Shown one piece after another: positions 42,077 to 47,508 of a stretch of 64,000 bases of DNA; within the stretch, counting starts at the first letter, position 1, and each line of letters starts with the position of its first letter. The stretch lies in the NCBI GenBank assembly GCA_965223665.1, contig OZ245011.1, positions 384,001 to 448,000 of the forward strand, given 5' to 3'. The notes under the pieces are model-generated. The model was given only the letters and a program-made list of their open reading frames with translations. It was not told the DNA's origin and did no database searches. The position numbers and the translations under genes were made by a program. Origin of the DNA: Nitrospinaceae bacterium (GTDB lineage: Bacteria; Nitrospinota; Nitrospinia; Nitrospinales; Nitrospinaceae).

Positions 42077-42928
42077 TTATTCTAAAATGGTATTATCAAG
42101 TATGGCATCTTTAAGCAGTGCTTTTGCAATATTAGCATCTACTAAATAAGCGTCCTTAAGATTAGTTCCATTTAAATTGGTTCCATGTAGATTGGCCTCT
42201 AATAAAAATGAATTTGCAAGGTTTGCATTTTCCAGATTGGCGTAAGTGAGGTCGGCCCCTTCCAGGTTGGATTCTTCCATATCCACTCCTTTACAAAATG
42301 AATCCTTAAATTCAACTCCGATTAAATTGGCGTAGGACAACCGGACTGCTCTCAACGTGCAAGAATTAAAGTCAGAGTATTTTAGTATGGAGGAACGAAG
42401 GTCAACATCCGACAATTTGGAAAAGGAGAAATCTGAACCGCGGATATTGGCCCCATTCATGCGGGTGGAGAAAATTTCTGTAGATTTCGCAAAGCAATAC
42501 ATAAGATTTGAAAAAGAAAAGTCGCAATTTTGAATTTTTGAGGAAGTAATATTACTGTGGTCTAAACGTGCGGCGCGAAATTCACACCCTCGGAATTGAG
42601 CAGATGCAAAATTTGCATTTTCAATTTTGGCATTTTTAAAATTACAATTTACAAGGGTTGCATTCTGAAAATTGGATTCGCTTAAATTAGCACCACTAAA
42701 ATTAACATTTTTTACCCGGGCATTTTGAAACTTTACTTTGGTTAGGTTTGCTTGAGAAAAATTGAGATCAATTAAATCGGAACCATCAAATATTGCTCCA
42801 GACAGTGTTCCATAAATAAATGAAACTCCATTGAGACTAATTCCTTTTAAGTCATAAGAGCTTAGATTGGTTCCATCCTGGCATTCATTATTTAAAATGA
42901 GTGATAAAACTTCTTCGACGTTTGACAT
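42077..42928 (-). CDS. Pentapeptide repeat protein
   Basis: Near-continuous A(D/N)(L/F)xx repeats; ATG overlaps motA-like stop (TAATG). Confidence 0.92.
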   Translation of the reverse strand: MSNVEEVLSLILNNECQDGTNLSSYDLKGISLNGVSFIYGTLSGAIFDGSDLIDLNFSQANLTKVKFQNARVKNVNFSGANLSESNFQNATLVNCNFKNAKIENANFASAQFRGCEFRAARLDHSNITSSKIQNCDFSFSNLMYCFAKSTEIFSTRMNGANIRGSDFSFSKLSDVDLRSSILKYSDFNSCTLRAVRLSYANLIGVEFKDSFCKGVDMEESNLEGADLTYANLENANLANSFLLEANLHGTNLNGTNLKDAYLVDANIAKALLKDAILDNTILE

Positions 42929-43755
42929 TATTTTTGCTGATCTGGAGGAAGCAGAGAATTCATATTTCTTTTAATTTTTTGGGGATTGATTCTGTCATGA
43001 ATTCCCTGGATCCCTACTCTAATAACTTTAAATAATGTAGCTTCATTTTCAGTACGGTTGCTAAGCTTTGCCACAATTGGCGTGATGATTAAATTTGCGA
43101 TAATAATTCCATAAAAAGTAGTGATTAAAGCTGTAGCTAAGGAAGGTCCAATGGTTTCAGGGTTGTCAATATGCATCAGCATTTGTACCAAGCCAATAAG
43201 TGTGCCTGCCATACCAAAAACAGGAGCCTGGACGGCCATGAACCTTAATATTCGCTGACCCGCATTGTGTCGATCCAGCATTGCACTTAATTCTCGCTCC
43301 AATATTTCATGAATTTCTCTTAATCCATAACCATCCACAATCATAGCAATTCCTTTTTTGAGGAATCTATTTTCTAAGTACTGTTCTTCCGCTTCTAATT
43401 TTTTTAAACCCCCAGTCCTATATTTGTGGGAAAGGCTCATAATCTCTTCAATATAATCAGAGGGACGTAGAGTGTCTGGTTTGTAGGCATTTATTATTAC
43501 AGGGAATAATCCCAGAATTTTTTTAGAGGAAAAGGCAATGAAAGTTGTAGCCAAAGTTCCGCCTATCACAATAAGTATGGCATTTAGATTAAAAAAGGTA
43601 GAAGCATCTCCACCTCTAAAAATTGCCCAGACTAACAGGCTAATGCCCAAAACAGTACCTGCTAGGGTCATAGCATCAAATCGGCTTTCAGGGGAAGAAT
43701 CGATTTCTGTAGAAAAGTTATGAACGTTTTCAGCTTGTCTTAACGGAATTTCCAT
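42928..43755 (-). CDS. motA: MotA/PomA family stator A subunit
   Basis: IVIGGTL, YRTGGLKKLE, FLKKGIAMIVDG, APVFGMAGTLIGLVQML, ATALITTFYG. Confidence 0.88.
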   Translation of the reverse strand: MEIPLRQAENVHNFSTEIDSSPESRFDAMTLAGTVLGISLLVWAIFRGGDASTFFNLNAILIVIGGTLATTFIAFSSKKILGLFPVIINAYKPDTLRPSDYIEEIMSLSHKYRTGGLKKLEAEEQYLENRFLKKGIAMIVDGYGLREIHEILERELSAMLDRHNAGQRILRFMAVQAPVFGMAGTLIGLVQMLMHIDNPETIGPSLATALITTFYGIIIANLIITPIVAKLSNRTENEATLFKVIRVGIQGIHDRINPQKIKRNMNSLLPPDQQK

Positions 43756-43756
43756 T

Positions 43757-45835
43757 CTAAATACTGATTAGTTTATTAGTATCTAAAGTCCTGGCTATTA
43801 GAGATTTATGTATATAACTGGGAACCCAGGCAAGGCTCTCTAAATCTAATCGGCTTCCGGGAATAAAAACCTTAAAAAATTCCGGATGATCCTCGCTGAA
43901 CGATAAAATTTGAGGTTGGAGTTCTGATAAACAACGGGAAAGACACATTAATCCAGAAAAAGTTTTACAAAAAAGTTCTCCCCATGAAGTCAAGTATATG
44001 GCTATGACACTACGCACTCTTTCAAGTCTCTTTTGGACAAACTGGGTATATTCCTCTAAAGTTCTACATTCCTTTATATTTCCAATTGTGACTTCTTTAG
44101 GGACGGGATTTCCGAAATCAATGATTAAATATAATTGCTTTACATAAGAATCATTCAGGAGCTCTTTATTGGAAATTTCTGCGACATTGGTTAAAGATAA
44201 AAATCCGGAAAGATCTTCGAGTAGTTTTCGTAGATCATTATCCTTAATTGAATGATCTTCCGATCGAAGTAACAAAAAGGTTTCCTCAGAATAAAGTCGA
44301 TTAAAGCAAGTAAACGCTATTAGAAATTGGAGTGTGGATGCTTTTTTAATGATTTTTGCTTTCGGAATTTGCTCAATAAAATCTAATGTTTTCCCGCGTA
44401 TAAGAAACCACTCACCCGGGTCCCGGGGTTGTGTTTTATGGTGAAGAAAGGTCAATTCCTTTTCACTAGTTTTACCGTCGACCAAGGCAAATAAGTTTTC
44501 GACTTTATTAACTGTTTTCCGATAGAAACTGAATAATTTTCTGCCGAGTAAATGCGTGTCTTTCTCAGTAATTAAACTTTCTCCCGGCGCTAATTTTTGA
44601 TTGGCTTCAGAAATATTTTTATATGAATTCATTAAAATTTTATTGACACGATTTCCCAACGCTACCTTTTCCATCATTTGCCAATTAAAATAATCATTTA
44701 AATAATCAGCTTTGGCCCGAGGCCAATTCCATGAATTTATTAAGTCAATTAATATGACTTTTTTGGGTTGTGAACTTCCATATTTTAATTCGTCAACTGT
44801 AAGTTTTTTTCCTACTTTTAAATAAAATGCGGTTCGTAATACTTCCAATTCGTCACTAGTTTTGTTGTTTTTAAAGAAATTTTCTACTCTTTCAAATAAA
44901 TTAATATAAGGATCGATTTGATCAAATGGAATGCCGCTATAAACTTTACTTTTAATTTCGTGGCAAAGTAAATTACTGGTTGTAGTATTAAACATATATT
45001 CTTCTAATAAAGCCATTTTGATGAGGGTCTTGAAGGGAGCCTTAAACGATTTAATTAATGCCCAAATGGAACCTCCGAAAAATTCACCTTGGGATATATC
45101 ATCTACATTTCCAATATCTAGAAAATCATTACTATTTAAAAGAGTCTGGTGTGTGTTAACCATTTGGTAAAGCTGCTCATACTGTTTGTCATCGGTTTTT
45201 AAAGGGACGACCCACCAAAAGGGGATTTTCCCAGCAGTGATGACGGCGGTTCTATACATTTCTTCTTTTAGCAATTTCGCTTGTGCCGATCCGGTACTTT
45301 CAGAGTCGCTTTCTCCAAAAATATTTTCCTTCACCTCATTAATATCATTACTAAAAAAGTGTATTTCCAATCCATAGGTTTTCCATGCCCATTCTTCAAT
45401 TATTTTTAATTTAAGATTAAAAAGGTCTAGATTTTCAGGAGACACACTATATTTGTTTATAAAAACTGTAAAATCTAAATCAGATTTTACGTTTTGAGCA
45501 ATGGAACCGGCACTCCCCATTAATAAAATACATTCAATAAAAGGATTCAGGTTTTCATTGGGCTGTGAATGAATATCAGGGAAGAGACTTTCTTGAGCAA
45601 AACGGCATTCATAACTTAATTTGAACCCTTGAATTCCACAGGGGACTTGATCAGTTATGAATCCGGGCAGACCTTTTTGATTTATATGTAATAATCGGGG
45701 AATTAAAGTGAAAACCTTCCGGTCTTCAGGGTTGAGGTTGCTAAAGATTTCATTTATTCGGTGCTGATTGTATCGCAGGAAAATTTGCCTATTATGGAAA
45801 AGTTCATTTGAAATGCTCTGTCCATTTGTTGTCAT
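43757..45835 (-). CDS. cyaA: Class I adenylate cyclase
   Basis: MGSAGSIAQNVKSDLD (nucleotidyltransferase DxD), EIHFF, ESTGSAQAKLLKEEMYRT, AGKIPFWW, KSFKAPFKTLIK, DPY, FYLK. Confidence 0.87.
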   Translation of the reverse strand: MTTNGQSISNELFHNRQIFLRYNQHRINEIFSNLNPEDRKVFTLIPRLLHINQKGLPGFITDQVPCGIQGFKLSYECRFAQESLFPDIHSQPNENLNPFIECILLMGSAGSIAQNVKSDLDFTVFINKYSVSPENLDLFNLKLKIIEEWAWKTYGLEIHFFSNDINEVKENIFGESDSESTGSAQAKLLKEEMYRTAVITAGKIPFWWVVPLKTDDKQYEQLYQMVNTHQTLLNSNDFLDIGNVDDISQGEFFGGSIWALIKSFKAPFKTLIKMALLEEYMFNTTTSNLLCHEIKSKVYSGIPFDQIDPYINLFERVENFFKNNKTSDELEVLRTAFYLKVGKKLTVDELKYGSSQPKKVILIDLINSWNWPRAKADYLNDYFNWQMMEKVALGNRVNKILMNSYKNISEANQKLAPGESLITEKDTHLLGRKLFSFYRKTVNKVENLFALVDGKTSEKELTFLHHKTQPRDPGEWFLIRGKTLDFIEQIPKAKIIKKASTLQFLIAFTCFNRLYSEETFLLLRSEDHSIKDNDLRKLLEDLSGFLSLTNVAEISNKELLNDSYVKQLYLIIDFGNPVPKEVTIGNIKECRTLEEYTQFVQKRLERVRSVIAIYLTSWGELFCKTFSGLMCLSRCLSELQPQILSFSEDHPEFFKVFIPGSRLDLESLAWVPSYIHKSLIARTLDTNKLISI

Positions 45836-45919: not shown

Positions 45920-45946
45920 TTATCGGATTTATTTCTTCTAACTTAG
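45920..45946 (-). promoter_or_regulatory. Possible sigma28-type promoter upstream of cyaA
   Basis: Minus strand CTAAGTTA-N11-TCCGATAA versus consensus TAAAGTTT-N11-GCCGATAA. Confidence 0.4.
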
Positions 45947-47475
45947 GGATTTAAAAGAACTTTGAAATTTTTCCCAGGCTGGTTTAGGGAGATTTTTTTA
46001 GTAGCAATTTCATCATCTAGTACATCCTTATCCTTTAAAATTTTGATTTCTACCCTTCGATTTAGAGCTCGGTTTTTATCGTTTGAATTGGGTTTTTGCG
46101 GCCTATATTTTCCAAAGCCTTTTACAACTATTCTATTTGGAGGAAAATTTAAGGATTCAGTTATAAATCTTGCAACTCTTGAGGCACGGGCTGTAGATAA
46201 TTCCCAGTTTGAGGGGAACTTTTCATTATGAATGGGAACATCATCAGTATGACCTTCTACATATATTTGTTTTACACCTTCTTTTAAATAATCATTCAAG
46301 GCTTGCTTTAAAAAGTCTCTTGCTTTGGGAAGCAGATCCGAATCTCCAGGAGAAAATAAATTATTACTTTGTAATCGAACAGAAAGAGTTTTAACATCGC
46401 TACGGATCAGGCTTTCGGGATCTACATTATCTTGAACTAATTCCTTAACCCTATTGAGCATAGTCACTTCTTGTTGGCTTAAATGTATATTGTCGTCATC
46501 CCAACGAAATTCTTTTTCTTGAAATGACGAGAATGCTTCTGCAAATCTATTTTGATCCACTTTAGAAATTGTAAATAGTAAAACAAAAATTACTAAAATT
46601 AATGTGATCATGTCACTATAAGTAACCAAAAAACTTTCAAGCCCTGAGGAAAACTCCGTTGAACCTTTAGCCCTACTGTCAATTTGAATATTGTTTTCAA
46701 AACGATCGATGTCTTTCTTTTCCTGTTCTTCAATGGCTTTTCTTTCTATATCTGAGATATATTCTTGCTGCTGTTCTAATTTTTCATTTAATTCATTGTT
46801 TTCATCAATTAGTTCACTAAGTTGATTTTTTAAATCATAACCGTATTCTGAAGATAAGAGACCTTTTTCCATGGATTGGGCTGATTCTTTGTAAAATTTC
46901 TCATAGTGTTCAATTAATTTTTCTTTTTCTTTTAATCGCTCTTGTAAATCCTCATTGGTTAAGGTAGGGCGTTTTTTTAGCTCGGTTTTTAATCTAATTA
47001 TTTGTTGATTTAAATCATCAATTGAGTTTATTTTTTCACGAAATCGGCGTAATTCTCTAAGTAGGTAAGATTTTTCCCGGTTACTTTTGTCCAAGGCTTT
47101 TTGTTCCTTAACAAGTCTTTTCCTTATGGCCTTTTCTTTTATGGTTAGCTCATCCAGTTTTTGTTTCCATTCATTTTTTAGATCCGGTACATTGACTCCA
47201 AAATCAGGCTTTCGAGTTTCTTTGTTTTCTTGGGAAGAACTTTGTTTAACTGTTATATGCCGTGATATCCTAGCAACCGAAGCCATTTGCTTGGCTTCTT
47301 GTATTTCCTTATCCTTCTGCTTTAACAGCAGATGCAGTTCGCGAATTTTATCTTTGTTGAGCTGAGTAACCTGAGAAACTTTGCGGTGCAATCTTGAGGC
47401 TTCTCTTTCCTGTTTTTTAAGCTCACTGCTTTTTATTTTTAACTGTTCTTTTACTGTTTGGAGAGAATGATTCAT
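45943..47475 (-). CDS. motB: MotB/MotS-like stator B subunit with long N-terminal coiled coil
   Basis: FLVTYSDMITLILVIFVLLF TM with conserved Asp; OmpA domain VEGHTDDVPI, SNWELSTARA, NRRVEI; aa 1-~270 heptad K/E/L/Q-rich. Confidence 0.88.
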   Translation of the reverse strand: MNHSLQTVKEQLKIKSSELKKQEREASRLHRKVSQVTQLNKDKIRELHLLLKQKDKEIQEAKQMASVARISRHITVKQSSSQENKETRKPDFGVNVPDLKNEWKQKLDELTIKEKAIRKRLVKEQKALDKSNREKSYLLRELRRFREKINSIDDLNQQIIRLKTELKKRPTLTNEDLQERLKEKEKLIEHYEKFYKESAQSMEKGLLSSEYGYDLKNQLSELIDENNELNEKLEQQQEYISDIERKAIEEQEKKDIDRFENNIQIDSRAKGSTEFSSGLESFLVTYSDMITLILVIFVLLFTISKVDQNRFAEAFSSFQEKEFRWDDDNIHLSQQEVTMLNRVKELVQDNVDPESLIRSDVKTLSVRLQSNNLFSPGDSDLLPKARDFLKQALNDYLKEGVKQIYVEGHTDDVPIHNEKFPSNWELSTARASRVARFITESLNFPPNRIVVKGFGKYRPQKPNSNDKNRALNRRVEIKILKDKDVLDDEIATKKISLNQPGKNFKVLLNP

Positions 47476-47500: not shown

Positions 47501-47508
47501 TTATCGGA
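47501..47508 (-). promoter_or_regulatory. Possible sigma28 -10 element upstream of motB
   Basis: TCCGATAA on the minus strand 25 bp before the ATG; -35 match is poor. Confidence 0.3.

Follow-up and report, generated by a model that had tools for sequence, protein, structure and literature searches.

A MotB-like stator subunit with a long, conserved N-terminal tail encoded beside a class I adenylate cyclase in Nitrospinaceae

A 510-residue open reading frame (45943..47475, minus strand) in the window analysed here, a 64,000-nucleotide stretch of a Nitrospinaceae genome, encodes a stator B subunit of the MotB/PomB type, which we call MotB-long for its extended N-terminus. MotB-long appears to have gained a conserved N-terminal cytoplasmic tail of about 275 residues, predicted to consist of four long heptad-patterned helices. 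Together with a PomA-like MotA encoded two genes downstream, it would most likely form a 5:2 ion-driven stator unit, which may serve the flagellar motor of this flagellated Nitrospinota bacterium. We hold with moderate confidence that this unit is an accessory flagellar stator in which the tail acts as a signalling scaffold. Through such a scaffold, or transmission rod, carried by the non-rotating subunit, signalling proteins in the cytoplasm would be linked to stator state; in the window copy, that state would be tied to cAMP synthesis.

Stator units are both the force generators and the load sensors of the flagellar motor, and the path from stator state to second-messenger networks, for example in surface sensing, has been examined chiefly in Pseudomonas, via indirect or A-subunit contacts. 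Here, the static B subunit carries a conserved cytoplasmic rod of about 275 residues, which has either a receiver domain on it or a PilZ receptor or cAMP cyclase next to it. Should the tail prove to be a signalling element, coupling from stator to messenger, or from messenger to stator, could be studied in a compact and testable system, and a long tail on a 5:2 motor would have come into use twice independently, here and in Zorya. A search of the accessible literature for Nitrospina MotB, flagella and adenylate cyclases of Nitrospina, N-terminal extensions of MotB and class I cyclases with MotA found nothing relevant.

Stator B identity and the start of translation

The C-terminal part of MotB-long has the composition of MotB, PomB and MotS, namely a single Asp-containing transmembrane (TM) helix, a plug helix and an OmpA-like peptidoglycan-binding domain. 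The TM helix (residues 277–303; 46567..46647, minus strand) was located by alignment, AlphaFold2 and comparison with solved MotB chains. All 22 orthologs compared share its Asp288, which lies in the sequence TYSDM. The plug helix (residues 308–320; 46516..46554, minus strand) was assigned from Pfam and AlphaFold2, and the OmpA-like domain (residues 373–473; 46057..46359, minus strand) from Pfam and PDB matches. Both Pfam models scored above their cut-offs (MotB_plug at residues 279–320, 49.7 bits against 24; OmpA at residues 373–473, 64.7 bits against 27.2). The best PDB matches are B subunits of MotAB and PomAB with E-values of 1e-24 to 1e-31, and the TM segment aligns with solved MotB chains starting at their residues 14–17. 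MotB-long scored below the NCBIfam equivalog cut-offs for MotB, MotS and MotD, the best being MotS with 139.8 bits against 264.

The main difference from MotB, PomB and MotS lies ahead of the TM helix, where these proteins have about 15–30 residues and MotB-long has about 275, predicted as coiled coil. An earlier note on this DNA had stated that canonical MotB N-termini are short, and a comparison set, consisting mostly of ordinary MotBs from a broad-pattern scan of genome contigs, agrees with this. Among its 84 MotB-like open reading frames, drawn from 80 loci in many phyla, the median N-terminus before the equivalent of residue 270 was about 6 residues. Only three exceeded 150 residues there; two were Nitrospinaceae copies, and the third was a tandem-OmpA protein that lacks a coiled coil. 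L042 (480 aa), a candidate long-tailed MotB from outside the phylum, was rejected as a tandem OmpA plus MotB protein with no coiled coil.

The ATG at 47475 is the earliest start past the preceding stop in this frame (47475..45943, minus strand), and we considered whether the annotation is an artefact, with the true start just before the TM helix and the 275 upstream codons untranslated. An obvious strong Shine-Dalgarno sequence is absent upstream of this ATG, which would fit such a case. However, the tail begins with a conserved Met-xx-KEQLK motif; the alignment of MotB-long orthologs (A1) shows no change at Q6, E10, Q11 and K13 and hardly any at M1. Dozens of genomes, at 38–56% identity, keep the frame open, and the tail is under strong purifying selection (dN/dS 0.03 between genomes G000 and G018, from 82 synonymous and 17 non-synonymous differences; 0.07 for the remaining protein). 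All 120 listed homologs of MotB-long are 498–579 aa long with a coverage of 91–100%; one ortholog, P0005, is recorded by NCBI under Nitrospina gracilis. The start of the tail is supported by these conserved N-terminal residues, the low dN/dS and the homolog lengths with near-full coverage. Moreover, the segment from residue 202 to the TM helix holds no alternative Met except M289, itself within the TM helix. A start just before the TM helix, which the earlier note had named as a result that would overturn its reading, is contradicted by the invariant residues from position 1 and the selection on the tail, and we regard it as highly improbable. Some copies in genus g14 look eroded at the sequence level; alignment to MotB-long begins only at residue 115 in G043 and at residue 224 in G045, and the G047 copy has two in-frame stops.

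Architecture and distribution of the tail

The tail (residues 1–276; 46648..47475, minus strand) is conserved and heptad-patterned, and its location in the cytoplasm is supported by homology. The earlier note had described about 280 K/E/L/Q-rich, heptad-like residues before the Asp-containing TM helix (its span, 46630–47475, corresponds to residues 1–282), and composition, heptad score and AlphaFold2 all confirm this. Residues 1–275 contain 14.9% K, 13.8% E, 11.3% L and 8.0% Q, and K, E, R, D and Q together make up 49%. With a crude in-house heptad scorer, residues 1–69, 100–169, 174–204 and 213–249 lay above the 99th percentile of shuffles of the entire protein.

AlphaFold2 predicted four helices with 245 helical residues in total. 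Helix 1 (residues 2–79; 47239..47472, minus strand) carries the conserved KEQLK motif at residues 9–13. It is followed by a disordered linker (about residues 80–98; 47182..47238, minus strand), which has a pLDDT below 50 at residues 77–97, a dN/dS of 0.44 over residues 71–100 and a variable length in alignment A1. Helix 2 (residues 99–168; 46972..47181, minus strand) was delimited by heptad score and AlphaFold2. Helix 3 (residues 174–203; 46867..46956, minus strand), from AlphaFold2 and conservation, carries an EKxxLIxxYE motif at residues 183–192. Helix 4 (residues 209–275; 46651..46851, minus strand), from AlphaFold2 and the alignment, comes after a GxLPxEII break at residues 205–212. In place of the single rod proposed earlier, the tail is thus predicted to have four helices, with breaks that are conserved and a disordered, variable linker about 20 residues long, and the suggested length of up to about 40 nm comes down to at most about 36 nm for 245 helical residues.

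The tail seems to be confined to a narrow group of proteins. Most of 59 Nitrospinota genomes have it in its entire length, and it measures 272–287 aa across 11 loci of the cyclase-linked family. Residues 1–278 have no match in a Pfam scan of MotB-long, and a Foldseek search of the tail model against the PDB gave no match below an E-value of 0.4, returning generic coiled coils only. When 1.84 billion proteins were searched with a profile of the tail, no more than 115 clusters matched, almost all of them N-termini of MotB-like proteins. In the ESM Atlas, scores of at least 0.95 were obtained only for Nitrospinota clusters with MotB_plug and OmpA; a hypothetical Bdellovibrionota cluster scored 0.83.

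A homologous tail was also found on a paralogous MotB encoded in a MotA-MotB-PilZ-p212 operon, at all 16 loci examined. PilZ was confirmed in 15 of the 16 members, with RxxxR and D/E-x-S-x-x-G conserved. The anchors common to the cyclase-linked and PilZ-linked tails include KEQL and EKxxLIxxYE, and K9, E10 and Q11 are invariant in both families. The GxLPxEII break, in contrast, is specific to the cyclase-linked family, as are a KExxRxR motif and R268. In a further variant (P0186, L143), a receiver domain, the tail, MotB_plug and OmpA are joined within a single protein, which adjoins an HD-GYP-type protein. A tail specific to cyclase linkage is ruled out by the PilZ-linked paralog and the receiver-capped MotB; judged from these alignments, the tail is a family-wide trait of the order's long MotBs.

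Operon partners and ties to the flagellum

MotB-long is the first gene in the order motB-cyaA-motA-pentapeptide. The neighbouring class I adenylate cyclase (692 aa; 43757..45835, minus strand) exceeds the Pfam cut-offs for Adenyl_cycl_N (166 bits) and Adenylate_cycl (234 bits). Its nucleotidyltransferase G-S...D-x-D motif is intact, with G107, S108, D119 and D121 invariant in 23 sequences; it falls below the NCBIfam equivalog cut-off (446.6 against 802). The stator A subunit (275 aa; 42928..43755, minus strand) matches solved MotA and PomA chains with E-values of about 1e-43 and lies below the NCBIfam PomA equivalog cut-off. Like the MotA, PomA and MotP partners, it is a cognate four-TM subunit with a conserved Arg/acidic pair and a Pro. 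R113 aligns with the R-K-G-G motif of PomA and is the same in every sequence of the order's three MotA families (17, 17 and 3 sequences). Of the 17 cyclase-linked sequences, 16 keep E121, 15 keep E124 and all keep P226. We take the Arg/acidic pair and the Pro to be the rotor-contact residues of PomA/MotA. The start of the pentapeptide-repeat protein gene (283 aa; 42077..42928, minus strand) overlaps the motA stop. An FGE-sulfatase and an MFS transporter are further neighbours of the operon.

The linkage of motB to cyaA is strong in this family. The tailed MotB lies directly 5' of cyaA in 57 of the 59 genomes with this MotB type, as counted from the gene listings, and MotB and CyaA are followed by MotA and the pentapeptide protein at all 15 loci where the contig continues (16 were chosen). 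Linkage is kept where the gene order is altered, as in MotB-MotB-MotA-CyaA (L100) and MotA-CyaA (L105). Elsewhere, MotB and MotA are jointly missing with the synteny of cyclase and pentapeptide protein kept (L097–L099, L103 and L104), and a decayed motB remnant is present at L101. At least three lineages have CyaA and the pentapeptide protein but neither MotB nor MotA. In lineages without the tailed MotB, the cyclase remains about 65% identical to the window copy; therefore, it is not obviously dependent on the tail. The link between tail and cyaA proposed in the earlier note consequently stands for this family, where the two genes are adjacent, and fails as a general rule, since homologous tails are also PilZ-linked or receiver-capped. 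The sharing of an operon with a cAMP-making enzyme hints at a motor part wired into cell signalling.

Genome G000 encodes FliG, FlhA, flagellins and FliA. Of 120 genomes, 87 have both FliG and CyaA, 18 have neither and 15 have only one of the two. The 10 high-quality genomes without FliG all lack the three MotB types, the cyclase-linked one included, although this phyletic tie depends on a small number of independent losses among streamlined genomes of small size. The cyclase-linked type was found in three FliG-negative genomes, each less than 85% complete.

Upstream of motB, a CCGATAA box (47501..47507, minus strand; 26–32 nt 5' of the ATG) is a candidate sigma-28-type -10 element. The sigma-28 (FliA) consensus is TAAA-N15/16-GCCGATAA, and the fliD promoter of this genome reads TAAAGTTT...GCCGATAA; the CCGATA element also precedes its flagellin genes. 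Ten of 16 orthologous loci have CCGATA within 70 nt 5' of the conserved start, where about 0.01 occurrences per locus would be expected (P about 5e-17). CCGATA was found 5' of none of 16 PilZ-linked paralog operons and none of three HD-GYP-MotAB operons. The window copy has the -10 box without a good TAAA -35 box at the fliD-type spacing, and in some orthologs, for example at L084, a well-matching -35 box stands at the expected distance.

Possible roles of the tail and comparison with known systems

We read the tail as a signalling scaffold because every tailed family adjoins a second-messenger or phospho-signalling part: a class I cyclase and a pentapeptide protein in the window family, PilZ in the paralog, and a receiver cap beside an HD-GYP-type protein in the third case. 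The cap also suggests that signals enter at the tip of the tail. A tentative extension of this reading, which we think has a low probability, is that the MotB dimer is a transmembrane signalling rod. The state of the stator (engaged, plugged or conducting ions) would then be relayed by the TM helices to the coiled coil in the cytoplasm and would switch the enzymes associated with the tail, namely PilZ in the paralog and, in the window family, the class I cyclase together with the pentapeptide protein. The direction would be reversed in the receiver-capped variant, where phosphorylation might gate the stator. If so, a flagellar stator would act as a mechanosensor that has a second-messenger output of its own. 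The narrower model of the earlier note, in which a dimeric rod of about 40 nm docks the class I cyclase under the wall-anchored MotB and mirrors the ZorA tail, which recruits ZorC and ZorD, appears equally doubtful. It is favoured by the near-constant position of motB 5' of cyaA, the persistence of linkage through changes in gene order, the family-specific tail motifs and, as far as the available text on Zorya goes, the precedent of a tail recruiting soluble partners. However, the PilZ-linked paralog has the same tail architecture and anchor motifs with no cyclase, the receiver-capped variant is likewise tailed, CyaA and the pentapeptide protein outlive the loss of MotB and MotA, and the tail is segmented rather than one rod. 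A complex prediction of CyaA (A2) with tail residues 1–275 (A1) gave no answer (score 0.00) and does not bear on docking either way.

A non-flagellar 5:2 machine, that is, a free-standing ion-driven motor or an envelope sensor with cAMP output, comparable to Zorya, Tol or Exb, is slightly less probable again. No described flagellar stator has a comparable long tail or comparable operon partners, the NCBIfam equivalog cut-offs are missed, and a canonical short MotAB set is already present in the genome; that set could be the sole true flagellar stator. Against this, MotA is far closer to flagellar PomA/MotA, has no ZorA match in PADLOC and keeps the presumed rotor-facing Arg/acidic pair, the three MotB types are absent from high-quality FliG-less genomes, and the operon is preceded by the sigma-28-like box. 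The tails might also be purely structural, acting as spacers, struts, a C-ring cage or a means of positioning or retaining the stator, with the signalling genes as merely co-regulated neighbours. The tightly held tail length, the strong purifying selection along the helices and the sharing of the tail by paralogs with differing partners would suit such a role, but one variant carries a receiver cap and each tailed family adjoins a different signalling gene, and we judge it distinctly unlikely. As to the accessory stator itself, sampled genomes of the order hold several stator sets, and three to four sets per one FliG is many, which speaks against it. A rigid axial rod beneath a stator might clash with the C-ring, given the architecture of the motor.

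Like ZorAB of Zorya, the unit proposed here is a relative of 5:2-type MotAB with a long cytoplasmic coiled-coil tail. The available text of PMC11946911 bears out the earlier statement that the Zorya tail is on the A subunit, where it transmits a signal and recruits soluble proteins. The ZorA tail is C-terminal, on the subunit that rotates, and assembles into a pentameric bundle of about 70 nm. The tail of MotB-long is instead N-terminal, on the B subunit, presumably dimeric, segmented and at most about 36 nm long. PADLOC gave no ZorA match for the 275-residue MotA and no hit for the cyclase or the pentapeptide protein, and no ZorC-, ZorD- or ZorE-type effector genes adjoin the operon.

Physical or genetic ties between stator units and nucleotide cyclases or PilZ receptors are described for Pseudomonas aeruginosa, in which MotC binds and stimulates the nucleotide cyclase SadC (10.1101/483339), and for PilZ-stator coupling by FlgZ in the same species and stand-alone brakes such as MotL (PMC8203827, PMC6855561). 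The coupling in P. aeruginosa runs via MotC, an A subunit, and a membrane diguanylate cyclase, with an untailed MotB and no shared operon. In Nitrospinaceae, by contrast, a class I cAMP cyclase lies inside the stator operon and the extra domain is on the B subunit.

Fusions to MotB-like proteins also occur without a coiled-coil tail, as in P0286, with cytoplasmic Hpt and H-kinase_dim domains, and in P0289, a fusion with a receiver and a CheB fragment that is possibly an artefact. Other public long MotB-like proteins (470–700 aa) also combine MotB_plug and OmpA; in 7 of 10 sampled, the plug is at residues 8–59, and the extra length is therefore periplasmic or C-terminal.

The long MotB and its cytoplasmic tail

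The genome under study (G000; order Nitrospinales, 4.35 Mb, completeness 98.6%) carries a cluster of four closely packed genes on the minus strand of the window (G000:C1:384001-448000). In ORF calling and Pfam, the first is a MotB-like ORF of 510 aa (MotB-long, 47475..45943). After a gap of 107 nt comes the gene for a class I adenylate cyclase of 692 aa (CyaA, 45835..43757), followed 1 nt later by that for a MotA/PomA-like protein of 275 aa (43755..42928). The last gene, for a pentapeptide-repeat protein of 283 aa (42928..42077), has a start that overlaps with the stop of motA. The gene junctions at 43755-43757 and 42925-42928 are very close. The 1-nt gap and the stop/start overlap suggest that the cyclase, MotA, and the pentapeptide protein may be translationally coupled. 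MotB-long contains MotB_plug (residues 279–320) and OmpA (373–473) domains, and the Pfam scan returned no match for residues 1–278. In NCBIfam, MotB-long is matched best by MotS, a MotB-family model, and MotD, and the operon MotA by PomA and MotP, all under their equivalog cut-offs. Among the matches listed, the closest relatives of MotB-long are named Nitrospina or Nitrospinota by their sources.

The cytoplasmic tail (residues 1–275) is rich in K, E, L, and Q (K+E+R+D+Q = 49%). With a simple heptad scorer of our own, residues 1–69, 100–169, 174–204, and 213–249 scored above the 99th percentile of shuffled sequences, and AlphaFold2 predicted four long helices (residues 2–79, 99–168, 174–203, and 209–275). 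Composition, heptad score, and predicted helices agree with an earlier note that described a K/E/L/Q-rich, heptad-like region ahead of the Asp-containing transmembrane (TM) helix; the Asp is residue 288 and is invariant (22/22 orthologs). The pLDDT was 71 for the whole protein and 84 for the tail alone. The low pTM of the tail model (0.36) indicates no confident tertiary packing, which is consistent with an elongated element. The note proposed a rod of up to roughly 40 nm. The long helices were retained in our model, but they form four segments separated by a disordered linker (residues 77–97) and short breaks near 169–173 and 204–208. Taking 0.15 nm per residue, the 245 residues in helices would give a length of no more than ~36 nm.

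The reading frame offers no start ahead of ATG 47475. Among 22 orthologs (38–93% identity), Q6, E10, Q11, and K13 never vary and M1 hardly ever does, and the 120 homologs among the matches listed are all 498–579 aa long with 91–100% coverage. Between G000 and the congener G018, the tail has 82 synonymous and 17 non-synonymous differences (dN/dS 0.03; 0.07 for the TM and periplasmic part), and selection is relaxed only at linker residues 71–100 (dN/dS 0.44). Judged from this conservation, the start codon at ATG 47475 is correct, and translation would begin at this Met rather than just before the TM helix.

The TM helix aligns with solved MotB chains beginning at their residues 14–17; therefore, the ordinary cytoplasmic N-terminus comprises ~15 residues. 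In 84 MotB-like ORFs from 80 loci of many phyla, a median of ~6 residues precede the position equivalent to residue 270, which bears out the short N-terminus ascribed to canonical MotB. A long coiled-coil extension was found at only two loci of this set, both from Nitrospinaceae. In 7 of 10 sampled long MotBs from elsewhere, the plug lies at residues 8–59, so the added length is periplasmic. A 480-aa candidate (L042) was rejected as a tailed MotB because it is a tandem OmpA form. A 315-aa MotB on a Nitrospinia MAG contig (L008:1092-2039) has ~95 coiled-coil residues at its N-terminus and might represent a short-tailed relative from a different class of Nitrospinota; its neighbors, in our reading, are MotA, a probable sensor kinase, and a protein of receiver-HD type. 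Two metagenomic MotB-like proteins carry other cytoplasmic N-terminal domains, namely Hpt and H-kinase_dim (P0286, 702 aa) and a receiver with a CheB fragment (P0289, 477 aa). These could be genuine fusions or products of faulty gene calling.

Linkage to the cyclase gene and a probable tie to flagella

The cyclase-linked MotB type (E ≤ 8.7e-55, identity ≥38%, read from the matches listed, with 154 weaker ones outside) occurs in at least 59 of 120 Nitrospinota species genomes, and all 59 belong to the order of the window. In the other classes, the matches listed include only MotBs with open frames of ~230–290 aa. MotB-long lies directly upstream of the cyclase match on the same strand and contig in 57/59 genomes among the matches listed; the exceptions are a gene 344 bp from a contig end (G049) and genes on separate contigs (G055).

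Around cyaA, 20 loci of our choosing were compared. MotB is followed by CyaA in 16 of them, and MotA and the pentapeptide protein come next wherever the contig continues (15/15), flanked by a divergent MFS gene and an FGE-sulfatase gene. Of the other four, one has the order MotB-MotB-MotA-CyaA-pentapeptide (L100), and L097–L099 have only CyaA and the pentapeptide protein, with synteny unchanged. The tandem long MotBs of L100 (L100:8995-13253, G054; 530 and 500 aa) have tails that diverge. Among further loci, L101, L103, and L104 likewise have only CyaA and the pentapeptide protein, L105 has MotA-CyaA, and a partial MotB adjoins CyaA in L102. A frame-broken, decayed remnant of the 3' part of motB lies upstream of cyaA in L101; a search of L097–L099, L103, and L104 found no such remnant. 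These loci indicate that gain or loss affects MotB-long and its MotA together and that the cyclase can stand alone with the pentapeptide protein. Joint loss of the two stator genes occurred at least three times, with the cyclase/pentapeptide synteny kept. The cyclase homologs of other classes (31–37% identity) have no MotA, MotB, or pentapeptide neighbor (0/15 loci). In genus g14 (L090), some MotB copies look eroded, with alignments starting only at residue 115 (G043) or 224 (G045), and the cyclase-linked MotB of G047 has two in-frame stops.

The flagellar genes of G000 include FliG, FlhA, FliA, and seven flagellin-type matches. Against solved chains of MotA and PomA, the operon MotA scores ~1e-43, and it keeps E121, E124, and P226; R113 is invariant across all three MotA families of the order. 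By this alignment, R113, E121, and E124 would correspond to the charges that face the rotor in PomA and E. coli MotA. PADLOC gave a ZorB-type match for MotB-long (78 bits), no ZorA match for MotA, and no match for the cyclase or the pentapeptide protein.

Of 120 genomes, 87 have both FliG and the cyclase, 18 have neither, 8 have only FliG, and 7 have only the cyclase; the corresponding numbers for 57 high-quality genomes are 45, 8, 2, and 2. The tailed MotB type was found in 3 of 25 FliG-negative genomes, all <85% complete, and in none of the 10 high-quality ones (both among the matches listed). Because relatives are non-independent and the FliG-negative genomes are small, this co-occurrence is moderate evidence. 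This tracking of FliG by the cyclase (15/120 discordant) extends to the classes in which the cyclase lies away from stator genes.

A CCGATA box lies 20–55 nt upstream of the conserved start in 10/16 loci (expected ~0.01 per locus). It was absent upstream of the PilZ-linked operon described below (0/16), the HD-GYP-MotAB operon (0/3), and stand-alone cyaA (0/6 regions), where the sole copy, in L099, is within coding sequence. In G000, fliD and a flagellin gene are preceded by CCGATA and, 16 nt farther upstream, TAAA; this arrangement matches the sigma-28 consensus. A good −35 box was not found for the copy in the window.

Tailed paralogs and the possible role of the tail

G000 has three MotB_plug genes, one of which is MotB-long. 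The canonical one encodes a 268-aa MotB after MotA and a receiver-HD-GYP protein, an order seen in 3/3 loci. This short pair (260 + 268 aa; G000:C1:261832-264789, L139:5833-8790) is preceded by a 451-aa receiver protein, which we read as HD-GYP-type. The third gene lies outside the window in an operon (G000:C1:619449-622768, L121:4450-7769) encoding MotA (261 aa), a long-tailed MotB paralog (499 aa), a 131-aa PilZ protein, and a 212-aa protein with no Pfam match, and this operon is kept in 16/16 loci examined across the order. The PilZ assignment rests on Pfam matches in 15/16 members (best E-value 5e-10), an invariant R26-x-x-x-R30, and a conserved D/E-I-S-x-G-G box with invariant S54 and G57, which are PilZ motifs. 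Every stator set sampled in the order thus adjoins a cyclic-nucleotide signaling gene.

The tail of the paralog is homologous to that of MotB-long. Both families share M1, KEQL (9–12), L47, L110, L117, E134, L138, EK (183–184), I188, YE (191–192), E225, and E252, while GxLPxEII, KExxRxR, and R268 are confined to the cyclase-linked family. Tails are 272–287 aa long in 11 cyclase-linked loci and 260–348 aa in 11 PilZ-linked loci. A profile from both families, searched against 1.84 billion representative proteins, gave only 115 matches at E ≤ 1e-3 (72 at 1e-10 and 35 at 1e-30), located at the N-termini of ~480–560 aa proteins or in fragments. Of ten odd-looking matches that were checked, six carry both MotB_plug and OmpA, a seventh carries the plug alone, and the other three are unrelated.

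One of these six, P0186, combines a receiver domain (6–117), the tail, MotB_plug (385–431), and OmpA. A 607-aa gene 48% identical to it (L143:1462-3285, G099) follows an HD_5 (HD-GYP-type) gene and faces MotA, and a copy broken by stops (L144:195-2751, G100) precedes MotA, back to back with another pentapeptide-repeat gene. These three represent a third, receiver-capped tailed family.

The best-supported reading is that the MotB-long unit is an accessory flagellar-type stator, in which a conserved cytoplasmic rod has been added to the static B subunit; we infer tail dimerization, a 5:2 assembly, and localization at the motor. The note regarded the tail as a plausible docking site for the cyclase. 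Its link to cyaA holds for the adjoining genes, but homologous tails also occur on the PilZ-linked paralog and the receiver-capped MotB. Because the signaling partners differ (class I cyclase, PilZ, or a receiver domain with HD-GYP) and one family bears a receiver at the tail tip, we read the tail as a possible signaling scaffold or transmission element, rather than a cyclase-specific dock. The state of the stator might control cAMP, or, alternatively, a cytoplasmic signal might act on the stator. For stator-cyclase coupling, the closest functional precedent comes from Pseudomonas, where the stator protein MotC is reported to bind the diguanylate cyclase SadC and to stimulate it (10.1101/483339). 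In architecture, the nearest precedent is the tail of ZorA, which recruits ZorC and ZorD (PMC11946911); in Zorya, as the note stated, the long tail belongs to the A subunit, whereas here it is on B.
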